A DNA stretch of 64,000 nt from a virus. Position 1 is the first letter of the stretch. Every line of letters begins with the position of its first letter. The notes below the pieces were generated by a model. That model was not told the DNA's origin and did not search any database. It was given only the letters and a program-made list of their open reading frames with translations. The position numbers and the translations under genes are program-made. Shown here in pieces: positions 5,790 through 62,293 of this stretch. The DNA is taken from IMG/VR virus record IMGVR_UViG_3300031485_000046; one strand, 5' to 3'.

Positions 5790-7817
5790 CTACTCCGCAT
5801 AGGAATTCAGCATCGCGGTAAGCATAGAGCCTTCAGGAACATCTTCCCCATCCAGTACCGCAGTAATCACCTTTCTCTTTTCATCTATCATTTCTGCCAA
5901 CCTTTCTTCAATTGTGCCTCTGGGAAGAAGATACCAAATGTTGACAGCATTTTTTTGTCCAATACGATTGCACCTGTCCTCCGCCTGATCTAGGAGCCCA
6001 GGTGTCCAAGGCAGTTCAAGGAAAGCTACGTTGTGGGAAGCGGTAAGTGTGATACCTACTCCAGCCGCCTTAATATTACCTACGAACAATCTTACGGAAG
6101 GGTCATTCTGAAATCTATCCACTATCTCTGCTCGTTTTTGGGCAGATACAGACCCGTCTATTTTTACCGCAATCCCTGTATTGAATTCATCCATAATGGC
6201 TGATATGATTTCCTTGTGGACAGCAAACACTACAAGTTTATGGGAAGTATCGTTCAGGAAATCTTTAATCCATTCAATCGCACCCTTTAATGCACCCTTA
6301 GCCGCCATAAACCTAAGAGCAGAAATCTGGGCAAGTGCTTCCGCATTAGAAGCCTTAGCCGCTGCCAACGCACCTTTATTTTCAGTAACCCAACCAATAA
6401 AATCTCTTTCTACCTTTCGATATTCCTTCTCATTAGACAAGGCTACAGGGATGACTGCTCTCTGCTTAGGTGGCAATTCTGTCAGGACTTCTTCTTTCCT
6501 TCTACGGATCATAACTCCCTGAAGTTTTTCGTACAATTCTTCGAGATTAGAAGCACCATTGTAATCCCAACCGAATCCATTGTGCTTGGCATCGCAGTAC
6601 CGATTGGCAAAGTGCATGAAATTAGGAAAGAGATTAGGTTCTACCATGCGGATAGCATTGTATATCTCCTTAGGCCGATTGATTACGGGTGTTCCTGACA
6701 TAGGAATAATATGAGGGATCCTTTTTGCCAATGCTTTCACGGCTTTGGTTCGGATAGTAGCATTGTTCATTATTGCCTGACATTCATCCAGTACCAGCAC
6801 CTTAGGACTAAGGCTTGCAAGGTATTCTTGCCATCCTGCCACTATATCATAATTAAGGATGATTATGTCAGGGTTATCAAGTTGGTATGCCTTTTTTCCT
6901 TCAAGTACAACTGCCTTTCTATCATCAGAAAGGCATCCTTTCACTTCTTTCAGCCAATTATATTTTACCACTGCTGGTGAAATGACAATAGTAGGCTTCA
7001 GTTCAGGATGGGCATGAATGTAGGCAAGGGCTTGAATAGTTTTGCCTAGTCCCATATCATCTCCAATTATTGCTTTACCATTCCGATGTTCCAAAAAAGC
7101 TACTCCCTGTGCTTGGAAAGGGTACAGCTTTTTCTTCAAACCTTCTATATTCGCTTCCTTCATATCATGGACAGATTTCTCTATCCTTGATATGATGTTC
7201 ACCAGCCCTTCATCAATAGAGAAACCCCATTCTTTTACCTGTTTGATAGAGGCAGGCGAAGCAGAAGCAACCCAATACTTTTCGGTTTCCTTGCTGACAA
7301 ATGACCTGTTAGGAAGCGATTTTACCTTCCCAAGCAGATCACCTGTAGGCTCGAAGGTTAGTTTCATCATATCGCCAGCGACTAATGTGGCGATACTTTT
7401 CTGAGGTTCCCGATTACCATCGTAGGATTTGTGAGTAGAAGGCACCTGAACAGTTCCCGCGTCCTCGTAGGCTATGAGAACAGATTTAGGGAACCAAGAA
7501 TCAACAACCTTGCTTCTCGTAACACCTTTTGCCATCTCGATCTGTTCTGGCGTAAGGGATTCAAGAACAAGGTCACGCAAGCCCCAGTCCTTAAGACACT
7601 CAGGACCAATGCCAATGAGTTTAGAACCGGGATGGGTAAGTGCTCTTCCACATTTGGAACAACGAACTTCTGGATCAATCTCACCGTACCCGTATAGGTA
7701 AACTGCTCTTGCAGTTTCCCTAAGGATTGCGGCTTTGAAGTATATTGGTACACCTTTCTCTCTTGCTACTATGGGTCTGGTTCGATAGAACTTTGCAGGC
7801 AGCTCCATGAATGTCAT
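5790..7817 (-). CDS. SNF2/RAD54-family helicase
   Basis: DMGLGKTIQ (motif I), LVLDECQ (motif II), helicase C motifs LFVGNIKAAGVGITL and QAEDRCNRIGQ; RBS AAGGAGGG. Confidence 0.9.
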   Translation of the reverse strand: MTFMELPAKFYRTRPIVAREKGVPIYFKAAILRETARAVYLYGYGEIDPEVRCSKCGRALTHPGSKLIGIGPECLKDWGLRDLVLESLTPEQIEMAKGVTRSKVVDSWFPKSVLIAYEDAGTVQVPSTHKSYDGNREPQKSIATLVAGDMMKLTFEPTGDLLGKVKSLPNRSFVSKETEKYWVASASPASIKQVKEWGFSIDEGLVNIISRIEKSVHDMKEANIEGLKKKLYPFQAQGVAFLEHRNGKAIIGDDMGLGKTIQALAYIHAHPELKPTIVISPAVVKYNWLKEVKGCLSDDRKAVVLEGKKAYQLDNPDIIILNYDIVAGWQEYLASLSPKVLVLDECQAIMNNATIRTKAVKALAKRIPHIIPMSGTPVINRPKEIYNAIRMVEPNLFPNFMHFANRYCDAKHNGFGWDYNGASNLEELYEKLQGVMIRRRKEEVLTELPPKQRAVIPVALSNEKEYRKVERDFIGWVTENKGALAAAKASNAEALAQISALRFMAAKGALKGAIEWIKDFLNDTSHKLVVFAVHKEIISAIMDEFNTGIAVKIDGSVSAQKRAEIVDRFQNDPSVRLFVGNIKAAGVGITLTASHNVAFLELPWTPGLLDQAEDRCNRIGQKNAVNIWYLLPRGTIEERLAEMIDEKRKVITAVLDGEDVPEGSMLTAMLNSYAE

Positions 7818-11595: not shown

Positions 11596-12162
11596 ATGGC
11601 ATATCGAAAATCAGGGAGACCTTTAGCAGTAGCAGAACCGTGGAATGAATCAATCCCAGAAAGGGCGTATGATCTTTGCCTTCTAGGATTGCGTGATGCC
11701 GATTTAGCCACGGCATTCGGAGTTTCTATATATACCATTGATAAATGGAAACAGACTCATCCAGAGTTTAGAGAAGCACTATCCAGAGGTAAAGAACAAG
11801 CTGACGCTAAAGTGGCAGACGCACTTTACCATAAGGCAGTAGGCTATGCCCATAAAGCTGTGGACATCAGAATAGTTGACGGCGAGGTAGTGAAAATACC
11901 ATACACTAAAATCTATCCACCAGATACTACTGCCTGCATATTCTGGTTGAAGAATAGGCAAAGACAGTACTGGACGGATACCAAGCAAAATGTTCATACT
12001 GGTACAGTGGGTGTGGAACATACTATGAGACGTCAACTTGACCTTTCTGATTTCTCCAAAGAAGAACTTGCCCTAGCAGAAAAACTAGCCTCTAGGATGC
12101 TTCAGGAGGGTACTCAGGATGCAGAGTTTACAGAAGAGGGGGAGAATGACGGGGATGAGTAA
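11596..12162 (+). CDS. terS: Terminase small subunit
   Basis: Immediately upstream of and overlapping terL; RBS AAAGGAG; family assignment is recalled resemblance to HTH-type small terminases. Confidence 0.7.
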   Translation: MAYRKSGRPLAVAEPWNESIPERAYDLCLLGLRDADLATAFGVSIYTIDKWKQTHPEFREALSRGKEQADAKVADALYHKAVGYAHKAVDIRIVDGEVVKIPYTKIYPPDTTACIFWLKNRQRQYWTDTKQNVHTGTVGVEHTMRRQLDLSDFSKEELALAEKLASRMLQEGTQDAEFTEEGENDGDE

Positions 12163-13714
12163 ATATGAACGTAAGGACGCCTTAAAACGCCAAAGAGAAA
12201 ACATCATCCCAAAATCAGATAGGTTCCAAGCATTACTTTTGAACCCATTGCAGATAAAAGCAGAAAAATGCCGTAGGTCCCTATTTGAATTTATGAAAGA
12301 ATTCTGGCCAGAAGTATCCACAAGTGACCCTACATGGAATTGGCATCTAGAATACCTAGCTAACGAACTGGAAAGGATGATGTATAGAGTAGCAAACAGA
12401 CAACCAAAAGAATACGACCTCATAATAAACATAAGCCCCGGTACCACAAAGTCTACCCTATGTTCCATAATGCTGAATGCATGGGTGTGGGCTAAATGGC
12501 CTTGGCTCCGATTCATCAACGCATCCTATTCTGGAGCCCTATCTCTGGAACATTCAGAATTGTGTCGTGACCTTATACGGTCAGAACGATACAAAAGGTT
12601 ATTCCCGTATTTGGAAATAAAGCAAGACAAGGATACCAAAACTAACTTTAAAATTTTATATGATGAAGAGCGTCTGGATTCCATAACAGGCGAAGCATCT
12701 ACACTAAAAAAGAGTGGTGGTAACAGATACTCCACCTCCGTAGGCGGCACCTTGACTGGATTCCATGCTGATGTACTGTTAGTAGACGATCCATTGGATC
12801 CGCAAAGAGCTGTATCCGACGTGGAAGTCCTTAAAGCCAACACATGGATAGATCAGACACTATCTACCAGAAAGGTAGATAAAGCGGTAACACCAACCAT
12901 AATCATAATGCAAAGGCTCCATCAGAATGACCCTACGGGTTATCTGCTATCCAAGAAGAATAAAAAGATAAAGCATATCTGCCTACCAGGTGAAATACGG
13001 AATTACAGGAAAAATTTGAAACCTAAAGCCCTAGCCAAGTATTATAAGGATGATCTGTTCGACCCTATAAGAATGCCATGGAAAGTCCTTGACGACCTAA
13101 GAGTAGACCTTGGTGAATTCGGGTATGCTTCCCAGATCGGCCAATCCGCAGTATCAGACAAGGGCAACTTATTCAAGGTAGAACACTTTCAAATCATCCA
13201 TAGTATGGTACCAGACCCAGACATAGTAAGATCCATACGATACTGGGACAAAGCCGGTACAGCTGGAGCTGGAGCATACACGGTGGGGGTACGAATGCTT
13301 GCATTGAATAATGGAAAATTCCTTATCACGGATGTTAAAAGAGGGCGGTGGTCCACAGAACAACGGGAAGCCATCATCAGACAGACTGCAGAAGCCGACG
13401 GTACAGACACAATAATCTGGCATGAACAAGAACCAGGTTCAGGCGGAAAAGAATCCGCAGAAGGCACTATAAGAAACCTAGCTGGATACACCACGTATGC
13501 AGATAGGGTAACTAGAAACAAGGAAATGAGAGCGGATCCATATTCAGTCCAAGTAAATAATGGTAACGTACTGTTACTATATGCTCCGTGGAACCAAGAC
13601 TTCATAGAAGAGCACAGATACTTCCCAAATTCAACATATAAGGATCAGGTAGACGCAGCCTCAGGAGCGTTCTCTAAGGCAGTACGGAAAAAGATAGCCG
13701 GTGCGATAGGATAA
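12155..13714 (+). CDS. terL: Terminase large subunit (ATPase plus RNase H-like nuclease)
   Basis: N-terminal ATPase region; C-terminal nuclease-domain pattern (IRYWDKAGTAGAGAY...DQVDAASGAF); start at ATG 12155 with RBS, overlapping terS stop. Confidence 0.9.
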   Translation: MSKYERKDALKRQRENIIPKSDRFQALLLNPLQIKAEKCRRSLFEFMKEFWPEVSTSDPTWNWHLEYLANELERMMYRVANRQPKEYDLIINISPGTTKSTLCSIMLNAWVWAKWPWLRFINASYSGALSLEHSELCRDLIRSERYKRLFPYLEIKQDKDTKTNFKILYDEERLDSITGEASTLKKSGGNRYSTSVGGTLTGFHADVLLVDDPLDPQRAVSDVEVLKANTWIDQTLSTRKVDKAVTPTIIIMQRLHQNDPTGYLLSKKNKKIKHICLPGEIRNYRKNLKPKALAKYYKDDLFDPIRMPWKVLDDLRVDLGEFGYASQIGQSAVSDKGNLFKVEHFQIIHSMVPDPDIVRSIRYWDKAGTAGAGAYTVGVRMLALNNGKFLITDVKRGRWSTEQREAIIRQTAEADGTDTIIWHEQEPGSGGKESAEGTIRNLAGYTTYADRVTRNKEMRADPYSVQVNNGNVLLLYAPWNQDFIEEHRYFPNSTYKDQVDAASGAFSKAVRKKIAGAIG

Positions 13715-18452: not shown

Positions 18453-18674
18453 ATAGAAACTATGTTTGTCGTAATATATCTTGAAAACGCATCAGATTCG
18501 TTTCATACTGTGCGATTTCCTTGCTTATGGAAGCTGTTCGTTCTGTTTCAGACGTTGTTTCTATCGTCTAGAGTGAAAAAGATCGAATACCGTGCAAGGA
18601 TTTAACGTGTCATGCCATCCCATTCGGTTGTTCCCTCCGTCCTTGCGACTTTCCTATAAGGGATGGAAACCGGG

Positions 18675-18893
18675 TCATTTCGCCCGCTCCTCCCAGAACC
18701 GTCTGCGTCGCTCCTCCCTGTGACGCTTGATATTCTCCCGCACCCTCTGCGTGCGGGGCGGGAACGTGTTCAGATGGGTCAGCACCGGCTCCACGCTGAC
18801 AGCTCTGCCGAATTCCCTCTCCCATTCCTGGGCGTAGATTTCCTCGTAGGATAACATTTCGCGAAATCTGAGCCCCGTGCATCGTCCGCTCAT
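18675..18893 (-). CDS. Small basic, arginine-rich protein encoded in a GC-rich patch
   Basis: ATG overlaps stop of KdsB-like gene (ATGA); local composition visibly GC-richer than surroundings. Confidence 0.4.
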   Translation of the reverse strand: MSGRCTGLRFREMLSYEEIYAQEWEREFGRAVSVEPVLTHLNTFPPRTQRVRENIKRHREERRRRFWEERAK

Positions 18894-19684
18894 TCCTTAC
18901 CCTCCTTTTTTTCTATAATTTCATCATATTCATTTTCTTTACCAGAGTTTATTATACAACGAACAGCTTCCAAATCAGCAGGAGTATCTACACTAGGTCC
19001 AACTTTTTTTGCTCTTGTTATTTCTACTTTAATGGAAAAATCATGTTCTAATATTCTGAGCTGTTCCAGTGATTCTGCTGATGCCAAAGGTGTTTGTGGC
19101 ATTTTGGCATAATAATGGATTAAGAAACGTCTAGTAAATCCATAAATTCCTATATGTCGGTAGATGGGATATACTTCTTCCGGATCTCTAATAAAAGGGA
19201 TAGGAGACCTACTGAAATATAAAGCATCTCCATTTATTCTGAATGCCACTTTTACTACCGATGGATCATTGATAGTAGCGGTATCTGTAATAAGGGCACA
19301 TATCGTAGCAGATTCCGTAGCCCTATTTTCAGTTTTATAAAATAATGATATTACTTCATCAATCATACAAGGATTAAGTAATGGTTCATCCCCTTGTATG
19401 TTTATCACTATATTATTATTAGAGAATTTTTTAGCTATTTCCACAACTCTACTAGTTCCGTTTGTATGATTTGGAGAAGTTAGCATAGCTTCTCCACCGA
19501 AATTATTTACAGCCTGCACGATTCTTTCATCGTCAGTAGCTACAATCAACCGGTCAAGTAAAGTAGATCGTGAGGCTCGCTCGTACACTCTCTGGATCAT
19601 TGTTTTTCCGCATATATCAGCTAGAGGTTTACCGGGGAGCCTTGTAGAATTGTATCTAGCGGGGATAACTCCTAAAGTTATCAT
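18890..19684 (-). CDS. kdsB: CMP-Kdo synthetase-like cytidylyltransferase (3-deoxy-manno-octulosonate cytidylyltransferase family)
   Basis: IPARYNSTRLPGKPL, VATDDE, GGE, QGDEP, ALYFSR, HIGIYGF, LEQLR, VDTPADLE match KdsB signature blocks as recalled. Confidence 0.85.
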   Translation of the reverse strand: MITLGVIPARYNSTRLPGKPLADICGKTMIQRVYERASRSTLLDRLIVATDDERIVQAVNNFGGEAMLTSPNHTNGTSRVVEIAKKFSNNNIVINIQGDEPLLNPCMIDEVISLFYKTENRATESATICALITDTATINDPSVVKVAFRINGDALYFSRSPIPFIRDPEEVYPIYRHIGIYGFTRRFLIHYYAKMPQTPLASAESLEQLRILEHDFSIKVEITRAKKVGPSVDTPADLEAVRCIINSGKENEYDEIIEKKEGKE

Positions 19685-19703
19685 TATTTATCACTTCCAT
19701 TCA

Positions 19704-19850
19704 TTATTTAAGATTATGTGGTACTTTTTTGTCAAGTTCCAGTAATTTTGCATTAACTTTTTCTAGTTCAGCCATGAGAAATATTACCATATCGCATCTA
19801 TCAGGTAGTATTTTTTCTTTACCTGTTACTTTCCTCCATAATTCTACCAT
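19704..19850 (-). CDS. Short ORF (48 aa) paralogous to C-terminal half of the 20615-20914 protein; not in ORF track
   Basis: ELWRKVTGKEKILPDRCDMVIFLMAELEKVNAKL vs RLWRKTTGKDFIMPDRCDLVVYLMEELDKAKRRI; no clear RBS. Confidence 0.3.
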   Translation of the reverse strand: MVELWRKVTGKEKILPDRCDMVIFLMAELEKVNAKLLELDKKVPHNLK

Positions 19851-19906
19851 CGGGATTTGTCCAAAGTTTCTTGTTATTGTCGTATTTCTATCCAGTTCTA
19901 TAATAC

Positions 19907-20443
19907 TTATTCAGAAAGGTTGTCATGTTCACTTGCATTTTCCTCCTTTGTTGGAAGTGGTACCGGTAACTTTTCTTTTATGCAATTCATAAGGATTGTA
20001 TATTTCCTTTCTTGCATCATTTCTAATGCTTTTACCATCGTTTTTCCCCAACCATTACATGAATATTTTCCTAAGTCTTTAATGTAGGCAACGTATCCTT
20101 TCATTCCGTTTAGTTCTGTAGTCATTGGCTGAATTGTAATGGAATACGGAATTTTCATCAATTCATCTATAGTGGGATCCTCGTTTCTGTTTATATTTTG
20201 TGAAATTACCGACATATTTATCATGTCAAACCTATTAGACATACGGTCAGGTACGTTAATCGTAGCACCACATCCGGAGCATCGCAAAATTAAGGAATCT
20301 AATTCTGCAATCATTTTATATGGATTTGGATACGCATACTGTATTTGGTCAAGAGTGTCAATTGGTTTAGCGCAAAGTGGGCAAATTATTTGTCTACCGT
20401 CACAAAACAATACATAACGCCCTTGTCCTATAGAAAGACTCAT
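19907..20443 (-). CDS. Hypothetical protein with paired CxxC motifs
   Basis: 178-codon ORF with AAAGGAG RBS. Confidence 0.6.
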   Translation of the reverse strand: MSLSIGQGRYVLFCDGRQIICPLCAKPIDTLDQIQYAYPNPYKMIAELDSLILRCSGCGATINVPDRMSNRFDMINMSVISQNINRNEDPTIDELMKIPYSITIQPMTTELNGMKGYVAYIKDLGKYSCNGWGKTMVKALEMMQERKYTILMNCIKEKLPVPLPTKEENASEHDNLSE

Positions 20444-20637
20444 TCTTCCATCTCCTTTTTAAGCAAAGCCTTCTGCATTTTCCCCAAAGCCGCAAACAAC
20501 GTATCTTTACAACCCGTATAGATATACAGACTGCCCACAACTTTACCATCAACGAGTACAGTATATGTAGGAGATTTGATTGGCCCATGGTTCTCTTCGA
20601 GTATTATCACTATTTCATTCCCCCTTTTCCATTTCAC
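20440..20637 (-). CDS. Hypothetical small protein
   Basis: GTG start, no clear RBS, overlaps upstream gene by 23 nt. Confidence 0.35.
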   Translation of the reverse strand: MKWKRGNEIVIILEENHGPIKSPTYTVLVDGKVVGSLYIYTGCKDTLFAALGKMQKALLKKEMEE

Positions 20638-20914
20638 GTATTCTACGTTTAGCTTTATCCAATTCCTCCATCAGATATACTACTAAATCACATCTGTCTG
20701 GCATGATAAAATCTTTCCCTGTTGTTTTTCGCCATAGTCTTACCGCTCTCATATCCGCTTTCCATACAATATCGAACACATTCTGGAGTTGTTTAGCGTC
20801 TTCTTTCAAGGAATCCACGAGCATTTTCATATTTTCTAACCGTTTTTTCAAGGAATCTCTCTCTTTAACCAGCTTTTCTAGTTCTTGCATGAGCAATTTT
20901 CGATCACTTTCCAT
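20615..20914 (-). CDS. Hypothetical coiled-coil protein
   Basis: ATG 20912-20914 with AAGGAGGG RBS. Confidence 0.55.
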   Translation of the reverse strand: MESDRKLLMQELEKLVKERDSLKKRLENMKMLVDSLKEDAKQLQNVFDIVWKADMRAVRLWRKTTGKDFIMPDRCDLVVYLMEELDKAKRRIREMEKGE

Positions 20915-21044
20915 CAATGTCCCTCCTTATAAATTTGCGCTTCACTATATTATACAACACCATTTTTGCTCATTTATACATAGTTTTCCATGAAAATTGT
21001 GTTTAATTTGCAATTATAGTATACTGTATAGTTTTCTGTCATAG

Positions 21045-21095: not shown

Positions 21096-22556
21096 GTGAG
21101 TAGGATAGAAAATATCAGTACCAACGAATTGGTTGGGCAATTACAGCGGATTACAGCTATGGCTGAACTGGCTACAAGAATGAATGTCGGTGCTAGGATG
21201 GGAATGCAGTATGACGGCCAACGGGATATTGCAAAAGCTCTTGGCTACCCACAAACAATACGGTACAACGACCTCCTTGCCGCATATACCCGTCAGGATA
21301 TGGCGAAAGCCATTATAGATCGTCCCGTAAAATCTACTTGGCGTGGAGATTTCAAGCTAGTAGAAACCCACAGGGACGATGATACGCAACTCGAAACAGC
21401 TTGGTCTACATTATATAGGAAATTGCACATAAAACAGAATTTCCTTAGAGTGGACAAGCTAGCCTGCCTCGGTAATTATGCTCTTCTTTTTCTTGGTTTC
21501 AATGATGTGAATAGTCCTGAAGAATTGATACGACCTGTTTCTGCTGGAGTAGGACGTGAATTGCTGTATTTGAAACCGTTTGGACAGAATGTCATTCAGA
21601 TCAAAGATTGGGAAGATGATACAAGTTCACCTGAATATGGAATGCCGCTTATTTATGAAGTAGACATTGGAGAAGCATCATCTAAAAAGAGCCGAACTGT
21701 CAGCATCCATCGGTCAAGGATTGTTCATGTAGCTTTCGACCTACTTGAATCAGAGTATGAAGGTGCTCCTGTTCTAGAAGTTGTTTTTAACCGTCTGAAA
21801 GACCTTGAAAAGCTAGTAGGCGGTTCTGCTGAAATGTTCTGGAGAGGTGCTAGACCTGGATATGCAGGTAAAATTGATCCAGAATACATGCTGACGAAAG
21901 ATACGGAAGAGGGATTGAAACGCCAGCTGGATGAGTTTGAAAATAATCTGCGAAGGATACTCATGCTTGAAGGTGTTACACTCGATAGCCTTGAGCCGCA
22001 GGTAGTTGACCCGTCTATGCACGTTGATATCCAGATTCAGATGATTTCTGCTATTACTGGTATTCCTAAGAGAATTCTTACAGGAAGTGAGCGAGGTGAT
22101 CTTGCTTCTACGCAAGACAAAGATAACTGGCTCGACCTTATCCAAATGCGACGGGAAGAATATGCTGAACCTAAGATCATTCGAGCAACCATTGACCGTT
22201 GTATTGAATTTGGTGTGCTTCCTAAGCCTGAAAAGGAAACATACAAAATAAAATGGCAGGATCTTTATGCACCGTCTGTTAAGGATCAAGCGGACATTGG
22301 GCAGATACGTTCGCTTGCCTTGAAACATTATACGTACAATCCTGAAGCAGAGCAGTTTATCCCGTTTGAAGCGTTCCTTACATTCTTCCTTGGTTTGGAA
22401 GATGAGGAAGTGGAGTATATCAAAAAGCTCCAGCAAACAAGTGAAAGGATATTGACGCCTGAATTAAAGGAACTTGCGAATGAAAATGCACCAACACGGA
22501 GAGAACGCCCTCCGCGGAGAGGAATACCTCGAGAGGATGAAGAACTAGAAAAGTGA
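21096..22556 (+). CDS. Portal protein
   Basis: Size and position (first gene of head module after terminase region); GTG start abuts RBS so true start may be downstream. Confidence 0.75.
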   Translation: MSRIENISTNELVGQLQRITAMAELATRMNVGARMGMQYDGQRDIAKALGYPQTIRYNDLLAAYTRQDMAKAIIDRPVKSTWRGDFKLVETHRDDDTQLETAWSTLYRKLHIKQNFLRVDKLACLGNYALLFLGFNDVNSPEELIRPVSAGVGRELLYLKPFGQNVIQIKDWEDDTSSPEYGMPLIYEVDIGEASSKKSRTVSIHRSRIVHVAFDLLESEYEGAPVLEVVFNRLKDLEKLVGGSAEMFWRGARPGYAGKIDPEYMLTKDTEEGLKRQLDEFENNLRRILMLEGVTLDSLEPQVVDPSMHVDIQIQMISAITGIPKRILTGSERGDLASTQDKDNWLDLIQMRREEYAEPKIIRATIDRCIEFGVLPKPEKETYKIKWQDLYAPSVKDQADIGQIRSLALKHYTYNPEAEQFIPFEAFLTFFLGLEDEEVEYIKKLQQTSERILTPELKELANENAPTRRERPPRRGIPREDEELEK

Positions 22557-22696: not shown

Positions 22697-24121
22697 ATGA
22701 CAACCGCAGTAATCAGTATGTATCAGGTGCAGGCAAATAATTATGAAATTCGTATGGAAACGTACATGGGAAGAAAGCATTTGATCGTTCCTGTAGTGAT
22801 GATGGTAGAAGGTGTGCATTGTGGTAGTGCTGGCCCGTTGTTTCATTCAATAGAAGAGCTTGGTAAGTACCCTGATTCTTGGAATGGAATCCCTGTTTCT
22901 ATTCAGCATCCCGAGCAAGATGGGCAGTATATTTCCGCAAACAGTCCTGAAGTTCTTGAACGGCAGACTGTTGGGCAGGTTTTCAATACGTTTGTTGATG
23001 GAAATAAGCTAAAAGCAGAGTGCTGGATTGACATTGAACGTATTACCACTATTAGTCCAGAAGCATACGCATATCTCCAGAATAAACGACCTCTGGAAGT
23101 GAGTATTGGTGTGTTTTCAGATGATATTCCACAAGAAGGCGATTGGAACGGAGAACATTATATAGCTGTTGCCACCAATCATCGTCCTGATCATCTTGCT
23201 CTTCTTCCTGGTGGCAGAGGTGCGTGTTCCTGGGCAGATGGAGCAGGTATCAGAGCCAATTCTATGAAGAAAGGAGGAGAGCCGGTGGATATTACTGCAA
23301 CGATAAAGGATCTTGTGTGTAAAGGATATGGAGTTCTATCGTATCAGAGTAATGAAGGTTTTCGTTCCATTATGTCGCAGATACAGGATGTGCTCAATGG
23401 GTACGATACGGGTCTAAAACTGCATTATCTGTCGGAAGTATACGAGGATTTTTTCGTATATGAGGTGAATTCTCGTATCAATCCAGAAACCTACATTACA
23501 TCCGTAAAGTATTACAAACGTCCGTATTCTGTTAATGAAGATGGAAAAGTTACGCTGGGAGATGTAGCTACGGAAGTGATGCGCAAAATTGTGTATGATG
23601 AGGTTAAAACTAATTCCAAGTATCGAAGAAAGGATGATGTGAAAGTGGACAAAGCAAAAATGGATATTCTGGTCCAGAGCGGAGTGTTTTCCGAAGCTGA
23701 CCAGGAGTGGCTTACGGGACTCGATGCCGAGCGCCTTGATAAGCTGGTTACTGCTTGCACTAAGAAAGTGGAAACTCCGCAGGCGAATGAGGCGAAAGTG
23801 GATATTCCCACAGTCATTCAGGCACTGGCTGAACAGTTTAAGACTCCTGAGCAGTACATCCAGCTGATGCCGGAAGAAATGCGTGATCAGATGGAATCGG
23901 GACTGAAACTGCACAGGGAACAGCGTCAGGCAGTCATTGACAAGATCAAGGCGTTCAATGTATTTTCGGAAGAAGAGCTTCAGAAAAAATCTATGGATGA
24001 ACTGAACAAGATTTCTAAGCTGATTCCTGCGCCTAGGGATTATTCGCTTGCCGGAGCCAAATCTGTCAATACGAATACGGAAACTGAGGAAGTTCTGCTT
24101 CCTCTCGGGCTGAAAGCCTAA
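22697..24121 (+). CDS. Putative prohead protease/scaffolding protein
   Basis: Position after portal; N-terminal globular domain followed by acidic coiled-coil region; RBS AAAGGAGGTGGTG. Confidence 0.55.
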   Translation: MTTAVISMYQVQANNYEIRMETYMGRKHLIVPVVMMVEGVHCGSAGPLFHSIEELGKYPDSWNGIPVSIQHPEQDGQYISANSPEVLERQTVGQVFNTFVDGNKLKAECWIDIERITTISPEAYAYLQNKRPLEVSIGVFSDDIPQEGDWNGEHYIAVATNHRPDHLALLPGGRGACSWADGAGIRANSMKKGGEPVDITATIKDLVCKGYGVLSYQSNEGFRSIMSQIQDVLNGYDTGLKLHYLSEVYEDFFVYEVNSRINPETYITSVKYYKRPYSVNEDGKVTLGDVATEVMRKIVYDEVKTNSKYRRKDDVKVDKAKMDILVQSGVFSEADQEWLTGLDAERLDKLVTACTKKVETPQANEAKVDIPTVIQALAEQFKTPEQYIQLMPEEMRDQMESGLKLHREQRQAVIDKIKAFNVFSEEELQKKSMDELNKISKLIPAPRDYSLAGAKSVNTNTETEEVLLPLGLKA

Positions 24122-24142: not shown

Positions 24143-24634
24143 ATGGCGTACAATACCATCAAAGTTAAGAAGTATTCGGATGTTATTGAGGAGAAAGTTG
24201 CCAGTGCGGCAATCACTCCGGGTATGCTTCTCATCATTGAAAGTGCAGGTACTGTGAAAGCGCACGATCAGGCGGATAAGGACGCATTTCCTATTTTCGC
24301 ACTTGAGGACGAACTTCAGGGCAAAGGGATTGATGATGCGTATGCAGCGAATGACCCTGTCCAGTGCTGGATTCCCTATCGCGGAGATATTGTGAATGCT
24401 ATTCTCGCTGACGGACAGAAGGTTGTTATTGGGGATCCTCTTACCAGTGATGGCTACGGTCGCCTGAAGAAGCATGTTACCGACGTTGGTGCGTCTGCGG
24501 CTGAACTTGTTTCCGTGTACCCGCTACAGATTGTTGGGTATGCCGCCGAAGCTCTTGACCTGTCTGGTTCTAGCGGAGCCGAAGTTTCAGGCCCTCTCGG
24601 CTATCACAAGCGCCTGCTCGTCAGGATTGCGTAA
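24143..24634 (+). CDS. Putative head decoration protein
   Basis: Small ORF immediately upstream of capsid gene (lambda D-E-like order); RBS AAGGAGGG. Confidence 0.45.
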   Translation: MAYNTIKVKKYSDVIEEKVASAAITPGMLLIIESAGTVKAHDQADKDAFPIFALEDELQGKGIDDAYAANDPVQCWIPYRGDIVNAILADGQKVVIGDPLTSDGYGRLKKHVTDVGASAAELVSVYPLQIVGYAAEALDLSGSSGAEVSGPLGYHKRLLVRIA

Positions 24635-25830: not shown

Positions 25831-26259
25831 ATGGTTGAAAGTAAGGCAGTAAAGAAAAAGGTAGTAAAGAAAAAGGTTGTTGAAAAGAAAGAACCTGAAA
25901 TTACTACTTCCAAAACTGAGGTGATTACTCCTCAGATTGTTGTTACCCCTCCGGGAATGTGTACATGGAGGAAAAAGGAAGGTGCTACATTCAGGCTTGG
26001 TAATGGTAAGAAAGTAAAGCCGAATGAAGTATTCAAGGCGTATCCTCGTGAAATTCCGCCTGCATTTCGTGACCTGTTTGAATTGCTTGAAGGTGATGAG
26101 AATGCTGTGGAACGAGTGATTACCGCTCCTTCTAAGTTTGCTATTGGTGAACGTGAAGACGGTATGTTTGATGTAGTTGATCCTGATGGTAAGTGTATCA
26201 ATGATGTTCCGCTCGGTAAAGAGGATGCCGAAAAACTGCTTATAGCACTCTCTACTTGA
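25831..26259 (+). CDS. Hypothetical protein with lysine-rich N-terminus
   Basis: RBS AAGGAGG; 142 codons. Confidence 0.6.
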   Translation: MVESKAVKKKVVKKKVVEKKEPEITTSKTEVITPQIVVTPPGMCTWRKKEGATFRLGNGKKVKPNEVFKAYPREIPPAFRDLFELLEGDENAVERVITAPSKFAIGEREDGMFDVVDPDGKCINDVPLGKEDAEKLLIALST

Positions 26260-26263
26260 TACA

Positions 26264-26977
26264 ATGCGGGCGTGGAATACTCCGAGGATATGGGATAAAG
26301 GTGAATGTTGGATAATAGGAGGAGGACCTTCTATTATGCGACAGTTCCATATTCCTGAGAATGTGATTGAGGCGGTTAGAGAAAAAAGATTACCGCTTTC
26401 TGCATATTCTCCGTACATGGAAAGCATTCATTCTAAGCATATCATCGGAGTAAACATGGCATTCCAGCTAGGAAATTGGGTTGATTTTTGTTTCTTCGGA
26501 GACGATGGTTGGTTTCGGGACCATAGAAAAGAATTAGCCCAATTTACTGGTGTAAGGGTATCTTGCGCACCTATGTTCAGTAAAAATACGTACCATGCAG
26601 ATAATGGGGAACGTATTAAGTACCTAGCGCAGGATCCTAAAAAATCACACGGTATTAGTGAAGTACCTTACACCGTATGTTGGAATGCAAATAGCGGAGC
26701 GGCGGCAATCAGCCTAGCTTCTCATCTAGGTGCTAAAAAGATTGTTCTGTTAGGATTCGATATGCAGTTAGATCCTAATGGAAATAGTCATTGGCACAAA
26801 GAGTATCAAATGAATCCAGCAAAACGATCCGTGTTTCCTCGACACCTTAGAGGGTTTCCAATTATCGCCGCGGATGCTAAACGGATGGGCATCGAAATAC
26901 TAAATGCCTCACCTGAAAGCGTAATAGACGATTTTCCTAAAATGACAGTGGAGGCGATATTGAATGGTTCTCCATAA
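26264..26977 (+). CDS. Sialyltransferase-like (CMP-sugar-dependent) glycosyltransferase candidate 1
   Basis: Motifs CWIIGGGPS, SGAAAISLASHLGAKKIVLLGFD, HWHKE resemble GT42/GT29-type and Maf/DUF115-type transferases (recalled). Confidence 0.6.
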   Translation: MRAWNTPRIWDKGECWIIGGGPSIMRQFHIPENVIEAVREKRLPLSAYSPYMESIHSKHIIGVNMAFQLGNWVDFCFFGDDGWFRDHRKELAQFTGVRVSCAPMFSKNTYHADNGERIKYLAQDPKKSHGISEVPYTVCWNANSGAAAISLASHLGAKKIVLLGFDMQLDPNGNSHWHKEYQMNPAKRSVFPRHLRGFPIIAADAKRMGIEILNASPESVIDDFPKMTVEAILNGSP

Positions 26978-27578
26978 AAACAATATCGCGGTTATAGGAC
27001 ACGGTCCTAGCACTCGTGGAAGGAAACTAGGCAGTTTCATTAACCTTTGTGATACGGTCATTCGCATGATCGAATGTGATTGGCAGGATGCAGAAGATTA
27101 CGGTAGTAAATATACGATCGGTGTATATGCTACGGGAGGATCTGACGATTTTACAAAGGTGATTGAACGAAAGCCTTCTCTTTGCTGGTGGGTGTACGTT
27201 GCGGCTGGAACCCGTCCTTCTACGGCGATGAATGATGATACAGTAGATGCTCCAGGTGTTGCGGGTCGTCCGATACGGTGGTTACGAAGAACCGTATGGG
27301 ATTGGATCGGTGATAATAAAAAGTTCTCTAGAGGTACTGCTGCCGCGATTGCGTCTATGGCGATCCTAAAACCCACTACAGTTCATTTAGTTGGGTTTGA
27401 TGATGTTGCAAGGGGTGGAATGCTGAAAGGAGCATATCATCCTCCTGAGTTGCAACAGTACCTCAAAGAACAAGGAAAGACACTTGCCAGAAGTGAAACA
27501 GACCATGATTGGAATAATGAAGGCACCGTACTCCAACGTGCCGCAGACTATTACGGAGTTGAGGTGAATTTTCTATGA
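26964..27578 (+). CDS. Sialyltransferase-like glycosyltransferase candidate 2 (paralogue)
   Basis: Motifs IAVIGHGPS, RGTAAAIASMAILKPTTVHLVGFDD, HDWNNE; RBS GGAGGCG. Confidence 0.6.
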   Translation: MVLHKNNIAVIGHGPSTRGRKLGSFINLCDTVIRMIECDWQDAEDYGSKYTIGVYATGGSDDFTKVIERKPSLCWWVYVAAGTRPSTAMNDDTVDAPGVAGRPIRWLRRTVWDWIGDNKKFSRGTAAAIASMAILKPTTVHLVGFDDVARGGMLKGAYHPPELQQYLKEQGKTLARSETDHDWNNEGTVLQRAADYYGVEVNFL

Positions 27579-28813
27579 AGACAATATCAGAGGAATATAT
27601 TCGCCTTAATTCTGAGGTACACAACCAGCGGAGAGGGTACGGTAATTCAGCCAATCGGTTTGCTAAGGACATTGGGCTTGTTTTGCATCAGTTCCACACA
27701 ATGTCTTTTCTGGATTATGGATGCGGAAAAGAATCTTTGATCCGTTGTATTACGAAGGACTATCCGTATCTTGCCCAGAGAGCAAAGTATGGAGCATACG
27801 ATCCAGCTATACCGCACCGGTCCGTTAAGCCGGAAGAGCAGTATGATATGGTTATTTCTACAGATGTTCTTGAACACATTGAACCTGAATATCTGTCAGC
27901 CGTGCTGGAAGAGATCAAAGGATATGCTAAAAAAGGCGTCTATCTGAATATCTGTATGCGACCGTCAGGAGATATTCTACCTGATGGTCGAAATGCCCAT
28001 CTGATCGTTAAAGATGCCCCGTGGTGGCGTGAAACACTATCCAAAGCGTTTGAAGGATGGGCACTGGAAGAACGGGATGTACTTGACTCTTGGCGCAATT
28101 ATACAGTAGTATTGACACCACCTAAGATTCAAAAGCCATTAAATATCGTCTGTTTCTACTGGAAAGGTACGAGTAATCGGTACCCAGGATGGGACGATGT
28201 GGATTTGGCAAAGATTTATGTCAACAATCTGTATAATGGCGTCCGTCGAAATTTGAACAAGGATTACAAGTTCATCTTGTTTTCCAATGATATTGAAGAT
28301 GGGCTGGATCCACATGTAGAGATACGAAAGTTCCAGCCTATCTCGTGGACAGGGTGCAATCCTAAGTTGTATGTGCATAGCCCAGATGCAGGATTAGAGG
28401 GAAGGGTGCTTACGTTTGATATGGATACTATCATCGTAGGAGACCTTACTAATTTTGCAGAATACGATGGGGCTTTCACTACACGGATGGAACCTGACCG
28501 AAGAAGAGTAACAGCAGGAGACCTGCTAGGATTTGAAGCAGGTGAAACGTACCAGTTATGGGAGAATTATAAGAATATCTCCAAGTATGCTGAAAAGTAT
28601 CAAGGAGATGAAAGGGAGATCTACAAACTTCTTTGGAAACATTTGCTGTACTGGCAAGAAGAAATACCCGGGCAGTTGGTTTCTTATAAAGGTGATGTTC
28701 GTCCTAATCAGAACAGACTGCCTAGAAATGCAAGAATTGTAAGTGCGCACGGTAAGCCTCGTCCGCATGAGATCAATGCGGAATGGATTAAATCGTGTTG
28801 GTGGGGAAAATGA
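27575..28813 (+). CDS. Fusion protein: N-terminal class I SAM-dependent methyltransferase, C-terminal domain of unknown (possibly transferase) function
   Basis: FLDYGCGKESL (motif I-like) and MVISTDVLEHIEP (motif II-like); C-terminal FDMDTIIVGD. Confidence 0.6.
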   Translation: MKTISEEYIRLNSEVHNQRRGYGNSANRFAKDIGLVLHQFHTMSFLDYGCGKESLIRCITKDYPYLAQRAKYGAYDPAIPHRSVKPEEQYDMVISTDVLEHIEPEYLSAVLEEIKGYAKKGVYLNICMRPSGDILPDGRNAHLIVKDAPWWRETLSKAFEGWALEERDVLDSWRNYTVVLTPPKIQKPLNIVCFYWKGTSNRYPGWDDVDLAKIYVNNLYNGVRRNLNKDYKFILFSNDIEDGLDPHVEIRKFQPISWTGCNPKLYVHSPDAGLEGRVLTFDMDTIIVGDLTNFAEYDGAFTTRMEPDRRRVTAGDLLGFEAGETYQLWENYKNISKYAEKYQGDEREIYKLLWKHLLYWQEEIPGQLVSYKGDVRPNQNRLPRNARIVSAHGKPRPHEINAEWIKSCWWGK

Positions 28814-29526
28814 AACCGTATGTAGAATCTCCCATTATCATAACAGGTTGTCCACGAAGCGGAACTAGCATCATTTCTGGGATGTTAGAAATATGTGGTG
28901 CATTTGCAGGAACTATTCCACAGCCTACGAAACACGAAACAAGAGGCATGGGAGAGAATCGGGTTATATATGAGGATGTTGTTAAACCGTATATTCAGAG
29001 TTTGCAAGCGGATCCATCTGGACAATGGCCATTGATGGATTCTGAAAAACTGATGATTCCTATCGACTGGGAATCAATGATTTCAGACGCCTTGCACAAG
29101 GATGGCTATATGGGAGGCAAATGGCTATATAAGAGTAATACTGCGGCTCTTATGTGGAAAGTGTGGTCCTACGCCTATCCTAGCGCCAAATGGGTCCTAG
29201 TACGCAGGCGTACAGGTGACATAGTTTCTTCATGTTTGCAGACCTCGTATATGAAAGCATTCAAAAATCCTGCATATCGTAAGGAAATTGGAGCGGAAAC
29301 AGAATCAGAAGCATGGATCCATTGGGTACATAAGTATGAAGAAGCCTTTGTAGGGATGTTGACTGCGGGAGTTAATTGTAAGGTTGTCTGGCCGGAAAGA
29401 TTCGTAAGAAACGATTATCAACAGTTGTATGAAGTAATTGAATGGGTAGGGCTTGAATGGAAATCTTCTGTAGCAGATTATCTAGACCCAAAGCTATGGA
29501 AGAATGAACGGAAGGAGGAGTGCTGA
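28810..29526 (+). CDS. Sulfotransferase
   Basis: IIITGCPRSGTSIISGML (5'-PSB PAPS-binding motif) and VLVRRRTGDIVSS (3'-PB-like); ATG 28810 overlaps upstream stop (ATGA). Confidence 0.7.
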   Translation: MKPYVESPIIITGCPRSGTSIISGMLEICGAFAGTIPQPTKHETRGMGENRVIYEDVVKPYIQSLQADPSGQWPLMDSEKLMIPIDWESMISDALHKDGYMGGKWLYKSNTAALMWKVWSYAYPSAKWVLVRRRTGDIVSSCLQTSYMKAFKNPAYRKEIGAETESEAWIHWVHKYEEAFVGMLTAGVNCKVVWPERFVRNDYQQLYEVIEWVGLEWKSSVADYLDPKLWKNERKEEC

Positions 29527-29894
29527 TGGCTAGAGTAACTCCAGCGGAAGTAAAATTGATCCTTCCTGATTCTGAACTGACAGATCCTACGATCACTGCG
29601 TTTATCACCAGTGCGAATAATCTGGTAAATGCAGTGCTTACGGATTACTTGACGGAGCCGTTGCTTACCGAAGTAGAAAAATGGCTGACCGCGCACATGA
29701 TTGCTTCTACAGTTGAGAGAATGGCAACTAGGGAAGGTGCCGGCGGTGCAGAAATTTACTACACGGGTAAGTACGGACAGAATCTAACATCCACACCATA
29801 CGGCCAGATGGTGCTGTCGTTAGATCCATCAGGAAGAATGGCGGCTCTCGGTGGCAAGACTGTCACCATGATTGCCATTAAGAATTTTGATTGA
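29527..29894 (+). CDS. Putative head-tail connector/adaptor protein
   Basis: Position and size; ATG 29527 with AGGAGG RBS. Confidence 0.55.
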
Positions 29895-46439: not shown

Positions 46440-47090
46440 TTATCTAATCTGGAATGTTTTTGTAAATCCGTTTCTACTTTTGCACCATCCTACTAGCCAA
46501 TAACAAAATGGTGTATCACTCAATGCGATCAATATTTTAACAACCCACTGGCTCATTATCATGGAAAATAAAACAGGCATGGGCATAATTCCATAAAATG
46601 CAATAACGATAAAGATTACCGTATCGAAAAACTGGCTAGATATGGTACCTACGTTATTTCTAAGCCACAAATGTTTTCCATGTGTTAAATCCTTTAGCTT
46701 ATGAAATACCCATACATCATTCAGCTGGCTGACAAGATAAGCAGTCAATGAAGCTCCAGTAATCCTACCAACTCTTCCAAAGAGTTCTGTAAAGAATTCC
46801 TGCCTCTCATAGAAAGGAGCGGCGGGAAGCATAACAGCGATAAACCCTAGTGACATAGCAAGCAGACTACAAAAGAATCCTGCCCATACAACCCTTGTAA
46901 CTACTTTCTTACCCCATACCTCTCCAATCACATCAGTCATAAGAAAAGTAATTGGGTATGCGATAACACCTGCTGGTAGAATGAAATCCCCAAACATAAA
47001 CAGTTTTGTTGCCAATACGTTTGCAGTTACCAACGATGTCACAAATACTGCAACCAGTGTGATGAATGTTCTTGGAATCTTGAGTTCCAT
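46440..47090 (-). CDS. YhhQ/VUT-family queuosine-precursor transporter
   Basis: Multi-pass membrane protein; YPITFLMTDVIGEVWG, LTAYLVSQLNDVWVFHKLK, FFDTVIFIVIAF align with recalled E. coli YhhQ blocks. Confidence 0.7.
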   Translation of the reverse strand: MELKIPRTFITLVAVFVTSLVTANVLATKLFMFGDFILPAGVIAYPITFLMTDVIGEVWGKKVVTRVVWAGFFCSLLAMSLGFIAVMLPAAPFYERQEFFTELFGRVGRITGASLTAYLVSQLNDVWVFHKLKDLTHGKHLWLRNNVGTISSQFFDTVIFIVIAFYGIMPMPVLFSMIMSQWVVKILIALSDTPFCYWLVGWCKSRNGFTKTFQIR

Positions 47091-55510: not shown

Positions 55511-57328
55511 TTATTTGAAATGGTAATCTCCCTTCTCATTCCAAGAACAATCAACAGGACACACTTCTGCTTCTACTTCCAAGGGTACATTTATCCAGCT
55601 CCAGTGCTTAGGTAAATCTTCACAAGTAATCCTATGAACAGTAGACGCAACCATATCTAATTCGTCAGGATGCACATCCAACACCATTGCGTCATGTATC
55701 TGTCCGATCAATCTGGATTTCCAGTTCTGTTCTCTGGATATCTTGTCAACCTGAATGAACGACCATAACAGACAATGAAATGCACTTCCCTGAATAGGAA
55801 TATTTATGCATTCATTCCTACGCATGATACCAGAACATCTGAATCCTGTGTACATGCTCACATACCCGTTTTTTTGATACCCTTCCCACCACTTGTCTTT
55901 CCAACGATTATACACTTTGAATCGCCTATTCCAAAAATCATCTTCAATTTTCTTGATATGGTCCGTAAACTTATCGAAGGAATCTAGCTTGTTTGCAATC
56001 AAGTGGTCGGAAATATGACCTCCGTCATGCTCAATGCCTTCACCTTTCTTCCATTTGCCTTTAGATAATCCGCACCATTTACAAGCAATATTTTCGGCGC
56101 AGTTTACATAATAGTCACCATAGAACTGCGGAAATACAAATCCGTTCTTTGCCGCTTGCCTCATCATTTTATGCGATGGTATACTCTTGTCTAACTTATC
56201 AAGTACAAATATCTGACAAGCCATATCACCGTGCATATCCGATGAAGGATCTTCAATGTACTTTCTCATAACAGGGTCATGATGGTAACACTCGCTGATT
56301 CTTACTTCCACTCCTGAATAGTCTATTTCAAGTAGCTGGTGACCTGGCTTAGGAAATATCGCTTTGCGAGTAATCTCCATAGCCTCTTTATCTCGCTTGG
56401 GAATATTTTGGAAGTTTATCCGCTCCGATGAATTATGTACGCATATTTGGTTCACGATAAAATTATGATATTTTTCCACTTCAATATCGTACACATCTAC
56501 CGGCTCATCAAGGTACTCTATTGTGTGGTCTGTATGATTAGACAATACCTTATTAGAAAGACGTGTATCTGATAACGCCCTCGCTTGCACGTATGTTCCA
56601 TCTATTAGACGGATTTTGTGCTCAGGTGTCACATCTAAGTATCCTTTCCCACCTCCACCGTTTATAGAGTAATGGATTCGCACAACTTTCTTATGTCCTG
56701 TTTTGCCAGCCCATATAACTTTTTGAATAGAAGGGCGGAGTTTATCGTCAAAACAATACACATAATCACCCTTCTTTACATTTTCAATAGGGGTCCCTTC
56801 TGGTTGTGCTTCAAAATCTTTCATTACCAATACTTTAGATCCTTTAGCTACACAAGAGCGAAATGTCTTTACTGTATGCAAATTAAAGAAAGGATGCAAG
56901 TATCCGCCTACTTGTTCTCTTATGAAAGCATCCAGATACGTATCTCGCACCTTTTTCAATTTGCGCATTTCCAAAATCCACTTTATCTCAGGAATATCAA
57001 TCTGGGAAAGTGCTTCATCGTCTGTTGCACCCTTGCCAGATGGTGTCAACTTTGCAGGGGTGATTTTCCTAACATTGTACAAAAGGTGTGCTAACTGCCA
57101 ATTAGAATCAGGGTTAGCCTTAGCACCATACACCTTCGTCCAATGCATATAGAATTTAGTATCCCTGAGTTTTCTATCCAATCGTGCTATTTTTTTGTCA
57201 AGGTACTCTTTTTTCTTTAAGCAGTAATCAACATCAATCCGCATTCCTTCTTGTTCTGCCCTCGCAAAAGCAAGGATGCCATCTTGCAATAGCTGATATG
57301 CTTCAGGAAGATTAGGTGTCAGTTGCAT
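55511..57328 (-). CDS. DNA polymerase family A, polymerase subunit (intein-containing)
   Basis: NFQNIP, motif A DYSGVEVRI, motif B RQAAKNGFVFPQFYG, motif C QIHDAMV; start at ATG 57326-57328 with AAGGAGGG RBS. Confidence 0.9.
   Translation of the reverse strand: MQLTPNLPEAYQLLQDGILAFARAEQEGMRIDVDYCLKKKEYLDKKIARLDRKLRDTKFYMHWTKVYGAKANPDSNWQLAHLLYNVRKITPAKLTPSGKGATDDEALSQIDIPEIKWILEMRKLKKVRDTYLDAFIREQVGGYLHPFFNLHTVKTFRSCVAKGSKVLVMKDFEAQPEGTPIENVKKGDYVYCFDDKLRPSIQKVIWAGKTGHKKVVRIHYSINGGGGKGYLDVTPEHKIRLIDGTYVQARALSDTRLSNKVLSNHTDHTIEYLDEPVDVYDIEVEKYHNFIVNQICVHNSSERINFQNIPKRDKEAMEITRKAIFPKPGHQLLEIDYSGVEVRISECYHHDPVMRKYIEDPSSDMHGDMACQIFVLDKLDKSIPSHKMMRQAAKNGFVFPQFYGDYYVNCAENIACKWCGLSKGKWKKGEGIEHDGGHISDHLIANKLDSFDKFTDHIKKIEDDFWNRRFKVYNRWKDKWWEGYQKNGYVSMYTGFRCSGIMRRNECINIPIQGSAFHCLLWSFIQVDKISREQNWKSRLIGQIHDAMVLDVHPDELDMVASTVHRITCEDLPKHWSWINVPLEVEAEVCPVDCSWNEKGDYHFK
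56432..56854 (-). mobile_element. Mini-intein (141 aa) inserted in polymerase
   Basis: Begins Cys (CVAKGSKV), TPEH block B, ends YHNFIVNQICVHN followed by Ser; flanking exteins reconstitute HTVKTFRS-SERINFQNIP. Confidence 0.8.
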
Positions 57329-61178: not shown

Positions 61179-61604
61179 TCAGTTACCTGTTCCGTCGTAC
61201 TCGGCAATCACCGAAATATCAGTACCACCTCTGCGATTGAAATTAGCCTCTATTCGCATGTGGTACGGTTTGCAAGCGTTCGACAGATCGTCCAGTATTT
61301 TGTTTGTAACAGACTCCATAAACGCTCCGTGCTGACGATATGCTCCCATGTATATCTTGAGTGCTTTCGTTTCCAAACAAAAATCCTTTGGAAAGTATCG
61401 AATCGTGATAGTGCCAAAATCAGGATTTCCTGTACGCGGACACAGACTGGAAAATTCCGTGAATACGAACTCCGTGGCGTATTGCCTGTCTTTGCACGGA
61501 TTATCAAATACTTCAAGAAGAGCTGGATCTGGATTATTGTACCTGTCGTACGGTACGACTGTTCCGAGGTTTTTCAGATGGTCTACATTCACTTTTCTAT
61601 CCAT
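61179..61604 (-). CDS. queF: NADPH-dependent 7-cyano-7-deazaguanine reductase QueF
   Basis: EFSSLCPRTGNPDFGT (catalytic Cys motif) and ETKALKIYM (QueF motif); start ATG 61602-61604 with GAGGAGGG RBS. Confidence 0.85.
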   Translation of the reverse strand: MDRKVNVDHLKNLGTVVPYDRYNNPDPALLEVFDNPCKDRQYATEFVFTEFSSLCPRTGNPDFGTITIRYFPKDFCLETKALKIYMGAYRQHGAFMESVTNKILDDLSNACKPYHMRIEANFNRRGGTDISVIAEYDGTGN

Positions 61605-62292: not shown

Positions 62293-62293
62293 C

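Follow-up and report, generated by a model that had tools for sequence, protein, structure and literature searches.

What do sugar-modifying enzymes encoded in the middle of a phage head operon act on? The question is raised by IMG/VR virus record IMGVR_UViG_3300031485_000046, a stretch of 64,000 nucleotides (the window, meaning the whole of this stretch) that comes from a source contig of 64,752 bp and is a near-complete tailed-phage genome, in which four co-oriented, overlapping genes (P1 to P4; 26264-29526) stand between the gene for the major capsid protein (MCP) and that for the head-tail connector. The four belong to a type of island that is widespread and hypervariable and occupies a fixed slot in the head module of related phages. 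With somewhat better than even confidence, the block can be read as a cytoplasmic glycan assembly line that is co-expressed with the head genes and modifies a virion protein. The island and its immediate neighbors, including three candidate acceptors, are as follows (aa, amino acids; ORF, open reading frame).

24143-24634, + strand: head decoration protein (phrog_766 at 5e-16); candidate acceptor
24653/24662-25783, + strand: MCP, DUF6260 type (phrog_771); candidate acceptor
25831-26259, + strand: small ORF of 142 aa between the MCP gene and P1; candidate acceptor or adaptor
26264-26977, + strand: P1, ORF of 237 aa, first enzyme of the island
26964-27578, + strand: P2, ORF of 204 aa
27575-28813, + strand: P3, ORF of 412 aa
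28795/28810-29526, + strand: P4, ORF of 243/238 aa, last gene of the island
29526-29894, + strand: head-tail connector (DUF4054), downstream border of the island

The translational coupling of the four genes that the initial annotation had described is seen at every junction: P1 starts 4 nucleotides past the stop of the preceding ORF, P1 and P2 overlap by 14 nucleotides with GGAGG upstream, ATGA overlaps join P2 to P3 and P3 to P4, and the stop codon of P4 runs into the connector's ATG at 29526. The identities given there for the flanking MCP and connector genes also hold, with the connector start, placed at 29527, off by one. For P4 the most likely start is ATG 28810, and an identical protein is on record for the resulting 238-aa form. 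Because homologues are numerous (at least 365 for P1, with E down to 1e-159; 1818, metagenomic, for P3; 452 cluster representatives for the P2 family), the ORFs are taken as real genes, chance being no explanation for them. A megablast search of the region against GenBank phages gave no match, and no transmembrane segment was found in P1-P4.

P1 is predicted to be a Maf/GT42-type (MptE-like, DUF115) sialyltransferase-fold glycosyltransferase, a pyrophosphokinase being the alternative considered; its putative active site lies near H176/H178 and D166. It tested positive for a sialyltransferase-like GT-A variant fold; against Pfam PF01973 (MptE-like) it scores 19.8 bits, below the gathering cutoff of 34.6, and some of its homologues carry a precomputed PF01973 match. 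Searches of the PDB returned nothing for P1-P4 as single sequences (phmmer) and nothing significant for the P1 profile (A1). Maf-type enzymes, known from flagellin glycosylation, act on one specific protein substrate and not on surfaces in general. Unlike the Maf flagellin glycosyltransferases, which are multidomain proteins of ~630 aa, P1 is a single domain, and it differs from both Maf and the GT42 Cst sialyltransferases in lacking a flagellar context, in falling under the Pfam MptE-like cutoff and in having only a putative donor and acceptor. The context of P1 is a phage head module, and no NeuB- or PseI-type family is among the recurrent families of the islands. Distant homologues (~28% identity) occur in isolate phages, also within virion modules: that of Pseudomonas phage vB_Pae_U7 has the MCP on one side and the Ad1 adaptor on the other, and that of Caulobacter phage CcrColossus comes after the tail genes, beside other glycosyltransferase and methyltransferase genes. 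In Pseudomonas siphophages the homologue between MCP and Ad1 (5893-6489 in the vB_Pae_U7 locus, L008) is short or split over two annotated ORFs, and may be degenerate or mis-annotated.

P2 is predicted to be a GT29-like, sialylmotif-bearing glycosyltransferase. Alone it scores 14.6 bits against Pfam GT29 (PF00777; E 0.022), below the cutoff of 23, and has no PHROG match. The 452 representatives of its family came from a profile search. An enlarged family profile (A5; 78 sequences) has pig ST3Gal-I (2wnb) as a match at E 4e-10, spanning residues 3-197, besides ST8SiaIII, ST6GalNAc2 and ST6Gal1 and, weakly, Cst-II; 42 of the 78 family members match Pfam GT29, the best at 3.5e-14. The P2 stretch VAVIGHGPS..LG..I...D.V.RM aligns to sialylmotif L of ST6Gal1 and ST3Gal-I, the N-terminal motif that binds the cytidine monophosphate (CMP)-sugar; SRGTAA...LVGFD aligns to STGILS...LYGF of sialylmotif S; and H181-DWNN-E186 aligns to HDGDFE of 2wnb, a His-x4-Glu arrangement that in GT29 is the catalytic VS motif. 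Among the 78 sequences H181 is invariant and E186 is conserved in at least 90%. A 79%-identical P2 is found in a Bacteroidia metagenome-assembled genome (MAG).

The initial annotation had called P1 and P2 paralogous sialyltransferase-like proteins; the fold holds for both, and the paralogy was overstated. Three motifs are shared in collinear order, pairwise BLASTP gives E=0.1, and profile-profile comparison reaches 91% probability over 35 columns only, values that rule out a recent duplication. The two are remote relatives, members of one fold superfamily in separate families.

P3 had been described as a methyltransferase fusion with its partner unnamed, a description that is upheld and can now be completed. 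The N-terminus (~aa 1-185) is a class I S-adenosylmethionine (SAM) methyltransferase, which exceeds its Pfam cutoff and has the expected fold and SAM motif I; the C-terminus (~aa 186-412) is a GT8-like GT-A glycosyltransferase with a DxD motif. The predicted model of P3 has a pLDDT (predicted local distance difference test) of 93.5, and its C-terminal domain has a GT-A fold nearest to GT8 members, with the lipopolysaccharide (LPS) enzyme LgtC among the matches. Both aspartates of the DxD (F-D-M-D-T) are invariant in 17 sequences. By sequence this domain has no glycosyltransferase match in Pfam (Glyco_transf_8 included), matching only phrog_1962, and its profile (A4) finds nothing in the PDB. 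Elsewhere among the metagenomic homologues the methyltransferase domain is fused to MptE-like, GT-D, GT2 and FkbM domains. P4, judged from its sequence, is a sulfotransferase of the type that uses 3'-phosphoadenosine 5'-phosphosulfate (PAPS), in agreement with the initial annotation: it scores 44.7 bits against Sulfotransfer_3 (cutoff 27) and carries the motifs CPRSGTS and RRRTGDIVSS, in which R21, S22, G23, R138 and S146 are invariant in 54 distinct homologues. These stretches are presumably the PAPS-binding 5'-phosphosulfate-binding (5'-PSB) and 3'-phosphate-binding (3'-PB) motifs. After profile and structure searches, all enzyme assignments thus made at first sight of the sequence stand.

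The cluster is not peculiar to this phage and recurs widely. In IMG/VR, relatives of P1 are encoded at 285 loci, of which 80 were fetched together with other contigs. Gene order in the ~80 fetched loci is constant: decoration protein, MCP, small ORF, P1, variable genes, sulfotransferase, connector. P1 and the small ORF that precedes it are the constant elements, and the sulfotransferase is usually the last island gene, which in most loci the connector follows immediately. From P1 to the connector the distance is 1.9-9.6 kb, filled by 2-12 genes, all on one strand and essentially gapless; the same four-gene set is present in close relatives (L002 and L010-L017), and sister islands reach 10-12 genes (e.g., L004:10001-17127, L060:2990-12265 and L067:9998-18781). 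That position points to the virion, which had been proposed as the target on these grounds and is strongly supported by the recurrence of the same head-module slot, the target itself being what we infer from it. No isolate that carries the island was found; the nearest MCP in an isolate, at 34% identity, is that of Brevundimonas phage MaInes, from which the island is absent. In one further locus (L001; GCA_900198705.1, FZPS01000013.1, 708667-729371) a copy of the head module from portal to P3, with P3 apparently truncated, is embedded in a contig of 2.4 Mb, with unrelated genes after it; a prophage remnant and an assembly chimera are both conceivable.

Glycan chemistry dominates the content of the islands. 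In a census by Pfam family, which took in 150 island ORFs at 26 loci, those found are Sulfotransfer_3 (23 ORFs), GT2 (13), Methyltransf_24, Methyltransf_23 and Methyltransf_11 (10, 7 and 6, respectively), GDP-mannose 4,6-dehydratase and epimerases (7), GT11 fucosyltransferase (4), adenosine 5'-phosphosulfate (APS) kinase (4) and DegT aminotransferase (3). APS kinase is a source of PAPS precursor, and its presence in sister islands argues for functional sulfotransferases; together with the dehydratase/epimerase, GT11 and DegT genes it indicates that some of these phages bring genes of their own for supplying nucleotide sugars and PAPS.

The same census bears on a different target, the host envelope. 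The enzymes could remodel envelope glycans late in infection, acting at the cytoplasmic face on LPS core or on capsular or other polymers that contain 3-deoxy-D-manno-octulosonate (Kdo), and could so mask receptors on debris and neighboring cells or block superinfection. Such a role would suit the LgtC match of P3 and the presence in this phage of KdsB, an enzyme of LPS and capsule pathways, and cyanophage KdsA/KdsB have been read as cell-wall modification genes (PMC12801897). Against it, transmembrane-like segments were seen in just 5 ORFs out of 259 from the islands (~98% have none), and flippases, polymerases and polyprenyl-phosphate transferases are missing from the recurrent Pfam families of the islands, so that there is no consistent membrane-embedded machinery for lipid carriers or export. 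The island also lies inside the head morphogenesis operon in every examined locus. Finally, the scan of genome contigs gave only 8 MAG contigs with P1 relatives, in bins assigned to very different, disparate phyla, whose envelope glycans would differ, and P1 is ~50% identical across them; a conserved phage acceptor fits this better. Envelope remodeling is therefore judged unlikely, while keeping some weight.

Modification of a virion protein thus remains the preferred reading, and a route for it can be proposed. The acceptor would be the MCP, the decoration protein or the small ORF product. P1, whose conservation is the highest in the island, as would suit recognition of an acceptor that is itself conserved and encoded by the phage, probably initiates or anchors the glycan with a CMP-activated acidic sugar; P2 and the GT8-like half of P3 would add further sugars, the methyltransferase half of P3 would methylate a sugar, and P4 would transfer sulfate from PAPS. 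The enzyme classes, the operon coupling, the conserved head-module placement, the solubility of the enzymes and the nucleotide-sugar and PAPS genes of sister islands are all observed here; acceptor, donor sugars, the initiating role of P1 and the order of methylation and sulfation are inferred from them.

Two sialyltransferase-fold enzymes imply CMP-activated ulosonic-acid donors, and CMP-Kdo is the one CMP-ulosonic donor that Gram-negative hosts generally supply. The leading candidate would be host CMP-Kdo, topped up by an enzyme of the phage itself:

18890-19684, - strand: KdsB (CMP-Kdo synthetase; NCBIfam NF003952), a possible, non-obligatory donor-supply gene

By its scores (287.3 bits against NF003952, cutoff 193; 212 against TIGR00466, cutoff 155) the product can be called a bona fide CMP-Kdo synthetase, so the identity first proposed for it is sound. 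Its assignment to the same pathway as the island is weak, and this weighs against the Kdo part of the proposal: the gene is 6.6 kb from the island on the opposite strand, in an accessory segment (18603-21040, comprising kdsB, a 72-aa ORF and small - strand ORFs) in whose place a relative with ~90% identity (L013) has 2.8 kb of other, unrelated small ORFs, the four-gene island being kept. No KdsB relative was found within the fetched flanks of 89 other loci, which is compatible with a host-supplied donor. Kdo as the sugar transferred is accordingly a real possibility that falls well short of even. Beside kdsB, a GC-rich (53%) patch coincides with the 72-aa ORF (18675-18893), which has an ATGA overlap with the kdsB stop; a structured RNA was considered for this patch and set aside, since there is no Rfam match and a coupled ORF reads better.

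Among the candidate acceptors, the small ORF has the tightest link to the enzymes. It lies directly 5' of P1 in 85 of 90 loci, and no other gene that does not encode an enzyme is strictly linked to P1; in the alignment a core is conserved, W-K-x-GGGS-x-RL ... YDVVD-x-GK-x-NEKAL, and the N-terminal insert varies, being rich in Lys, Thr and Pro and in one locus (L040:5995-6468) a PEVPET repeat. No match was found in Pfam, no significant one in the PDB (profile A7), no informative one in PHROG, and no relative of known function; in the island-less MaInes no protein like it follows the MCP gene. The decoration protein has a C-terminal insertion rich in Ser and Gly. In the MCP, the loop after a conserved W-D-x-S (~residues 228-243) bears an 8-residue S/T-rich insertion, STSTSSGDPVI, found only in the clade with the P1-P2-P3-P4 island; the putative acceptor peptide of this loop is given below.

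MCP S/T-rich loop peptide, putative acceptor: WDDSTSTSSGDPVITG

As a diagnostic acceptor site the loop was rejected, being clade-specific, with Thr there also in MaInes.

The strict linkage of the small ORF to P1, with no sign of its being structural, can also be turned toward a target outside the particle. The enzymes might modify a host defense or surface protein, or a small molecule, or make the small ORF product a secreted or regulatory glycoprotein, and the preference of Maf-type enzymes for a specific protein substrate would agree with this. The small ORF product has neither a signal peptide nor a transmembrane segment that could be found, and genes placed late in the operon, with the MCP on one side and the connector on the other, typically encode virion components; a non-virion target is on balance distinctly improbable, though less so should the small ORF product be an acceptor that stays out of the particle, and a virion protein is retained as the acceptor in what follows.

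The remainder of the genome bears on one further target, the phage DNA. The structural operon is on the + strand, with tail genes 3' of the connector, and its other members upstream of the island are:

12119-13714, + strand: terminase
21096-22556, + strand: portal
22697-24121, + strand: DUF2213 protein

The left and right arms, on the - strand, carry replication and nucleotide-metabolism genes, including those for an SNF2 helicase, primase, PolA with an intein, uracil-DNA glycosylase (UDG), RecA, SbcCD-like proteins, ThyX, dUTPase, QueC and a QueF-like protein. The glycan could in principle be a hypermodification of DNA, as where sugars are built on 5-hydroxymethylcytosine (5hmC). DNA-glycosylating phage GT-A enzymes resemble PBCV-1 A64R and GT8 enzymes (bioRxiv 10.1101/2023.12.21.572611), and the phage has QueC, the QueF-like protein and a deoxynucleoside monophosphate (dNMP) kinase. 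The 5hmC pathway that would be needed is not seen, however, since neither a 5-methylpyrimidine dioxygenase nor a hydroxymethylase was found in the window; the genes of DNA metabolism occupy the other arm and the other strand, synteny of the island with head genes holds for all loci, and the terms "sialyl" and "sulfo" have 0 occurrences in the study of DNA-glycosylating enzymes (bioRxiv 10.1101/2023.12.21.572611). A DNA-borne glycan is very improbable.

Two features of the arms stand apart from the island. The genes for QueC (61597-62436, - strand), the QueF-like protein (61179-61622, - strand) and a Vut_1/YhhQ-type transporter (46440-47090, - strand) suggest that the phage DNA carries a 7-deazaguanine derivative. 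The family A DNA polymerase gene (55511-57355, - strand) has its intein/HINT insertion at ~residues 189-308.

With a virion protein as the acceptor, the presence of 2-12 genes between a constant first and a constant last enzyme suggests diversifying selection on the particle surface, for which grazers, adhesion to mucus or particles, host defenses and phage-binding decoys are plausible drivers. A more specific proposal, offered only tentatively, is that the island is a hypervariable "virion serotype" locus of a large, uncultured group of tailed phages, comparable in function to the O-antigen and flagellin-glycosylation islands of bacteria, that builds sulfated, methylated, acidic (Kdo- or nonulosonic-acid) O-glycans on the capsid, anchored by a Maf-like initiator and a small partner protein. 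If true, it would be the first case in which sulfated glycans and GT29-type enzymes are shown to act on a bacteriophage particle; sulfation and sialyltransferase-type transfer of acidic sugars would be chemistries new to phage particles in the literature searched. The island would bring a large set of environmental phages, probably with Gram-negative hosts, within the reach of virion glycosylation, would give a first functional lead for many viral DUF115/MptE-like proteins, and would offer a compact toolbox of soluble enzymes (Maf-like, GT29-like, GT8-methyltransferase fusion and sulfotransferase).

The initial annotation knew of no described phage system with these activities. Full-text literature searches likewise found none in which enzymes of the sialyltransferase fold and a sulfotransferase are encoded together in a capsid operon, so the claim stands for the exact combination; it does not extend to methyltransferase and glycosyltransferase genes in a head operon, for which mycobacteriophage Corndog is an experimentally tested precedent. 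Virion glycosylation is described for the mycobacteriophages Che8, Corndog and Myrna (Freeman et al., 2023, as recounted in PMC11600133 and PMC13313380), and in cluster O mycobacteriophages a phage methyltransferase and glycosyltransferases are said to modify capsid and tail tube proteins (as recounted in PMC11600133). So far a few actinobacteriophages are the only phages for which virion glycosylation by their own enzymes has been shown, and there it is reported to weaken the neutralizing-antibody response (PMC11600133).

In Corndog, genes for a methyltransferase (gp35) and three glycosyltransferases (gp36-38) lie just upstream of the major head gene, gp41, so that in both systems the head operon includes a methyltransferase gene accompanied by glycosyltransferase genes in tandem. 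The Corndog enzymes are upstream of the major head gene, whereas the present island is downstream of the MCP gene, and gp35-39 have no sequence similarity to P1-P4 (BLASTP E > 0.1 throughout). The island also differs in its predicted sialyltransferase-fold (Maf-like, GT29-like) enzymes, its predicted sulfotransferase and the accompanying KdsB, and in its hosts, which are apparently uncultured environmental bacteria, the few MAG bins belonging mostly to Gram-negative phyla; anaerobic digesters are the apparent origin of close relatives. The capsid glycans of chlorovirus PBCV-1 are N-linked; this virus (enzyme A64R) infects eukaryotes and is not known to have sialyltransferase-fold or sulfotransferase parts in a compact operon. 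The GT29 sialyltransferases of animals and a few viruses are the nearest enzymes to P2, whose family profile can be aligned from end to end with ST3Gal-I and ST8SiaIII across motifs L, S and VS; in contrast to them, P2 is short, soluble and cytoplasmic, with no transmembrane segment or type II membrane anchor, and has Ile/Val at the position of the motif-L cysteine that forms a disulfide with motif S. The present system stands out for its chemistry (GT29-like, Maf-like, sulfation), its occurrence on hundreds of contigs, and a constant frame around variable content that resembles the organization of O-antigen loci.

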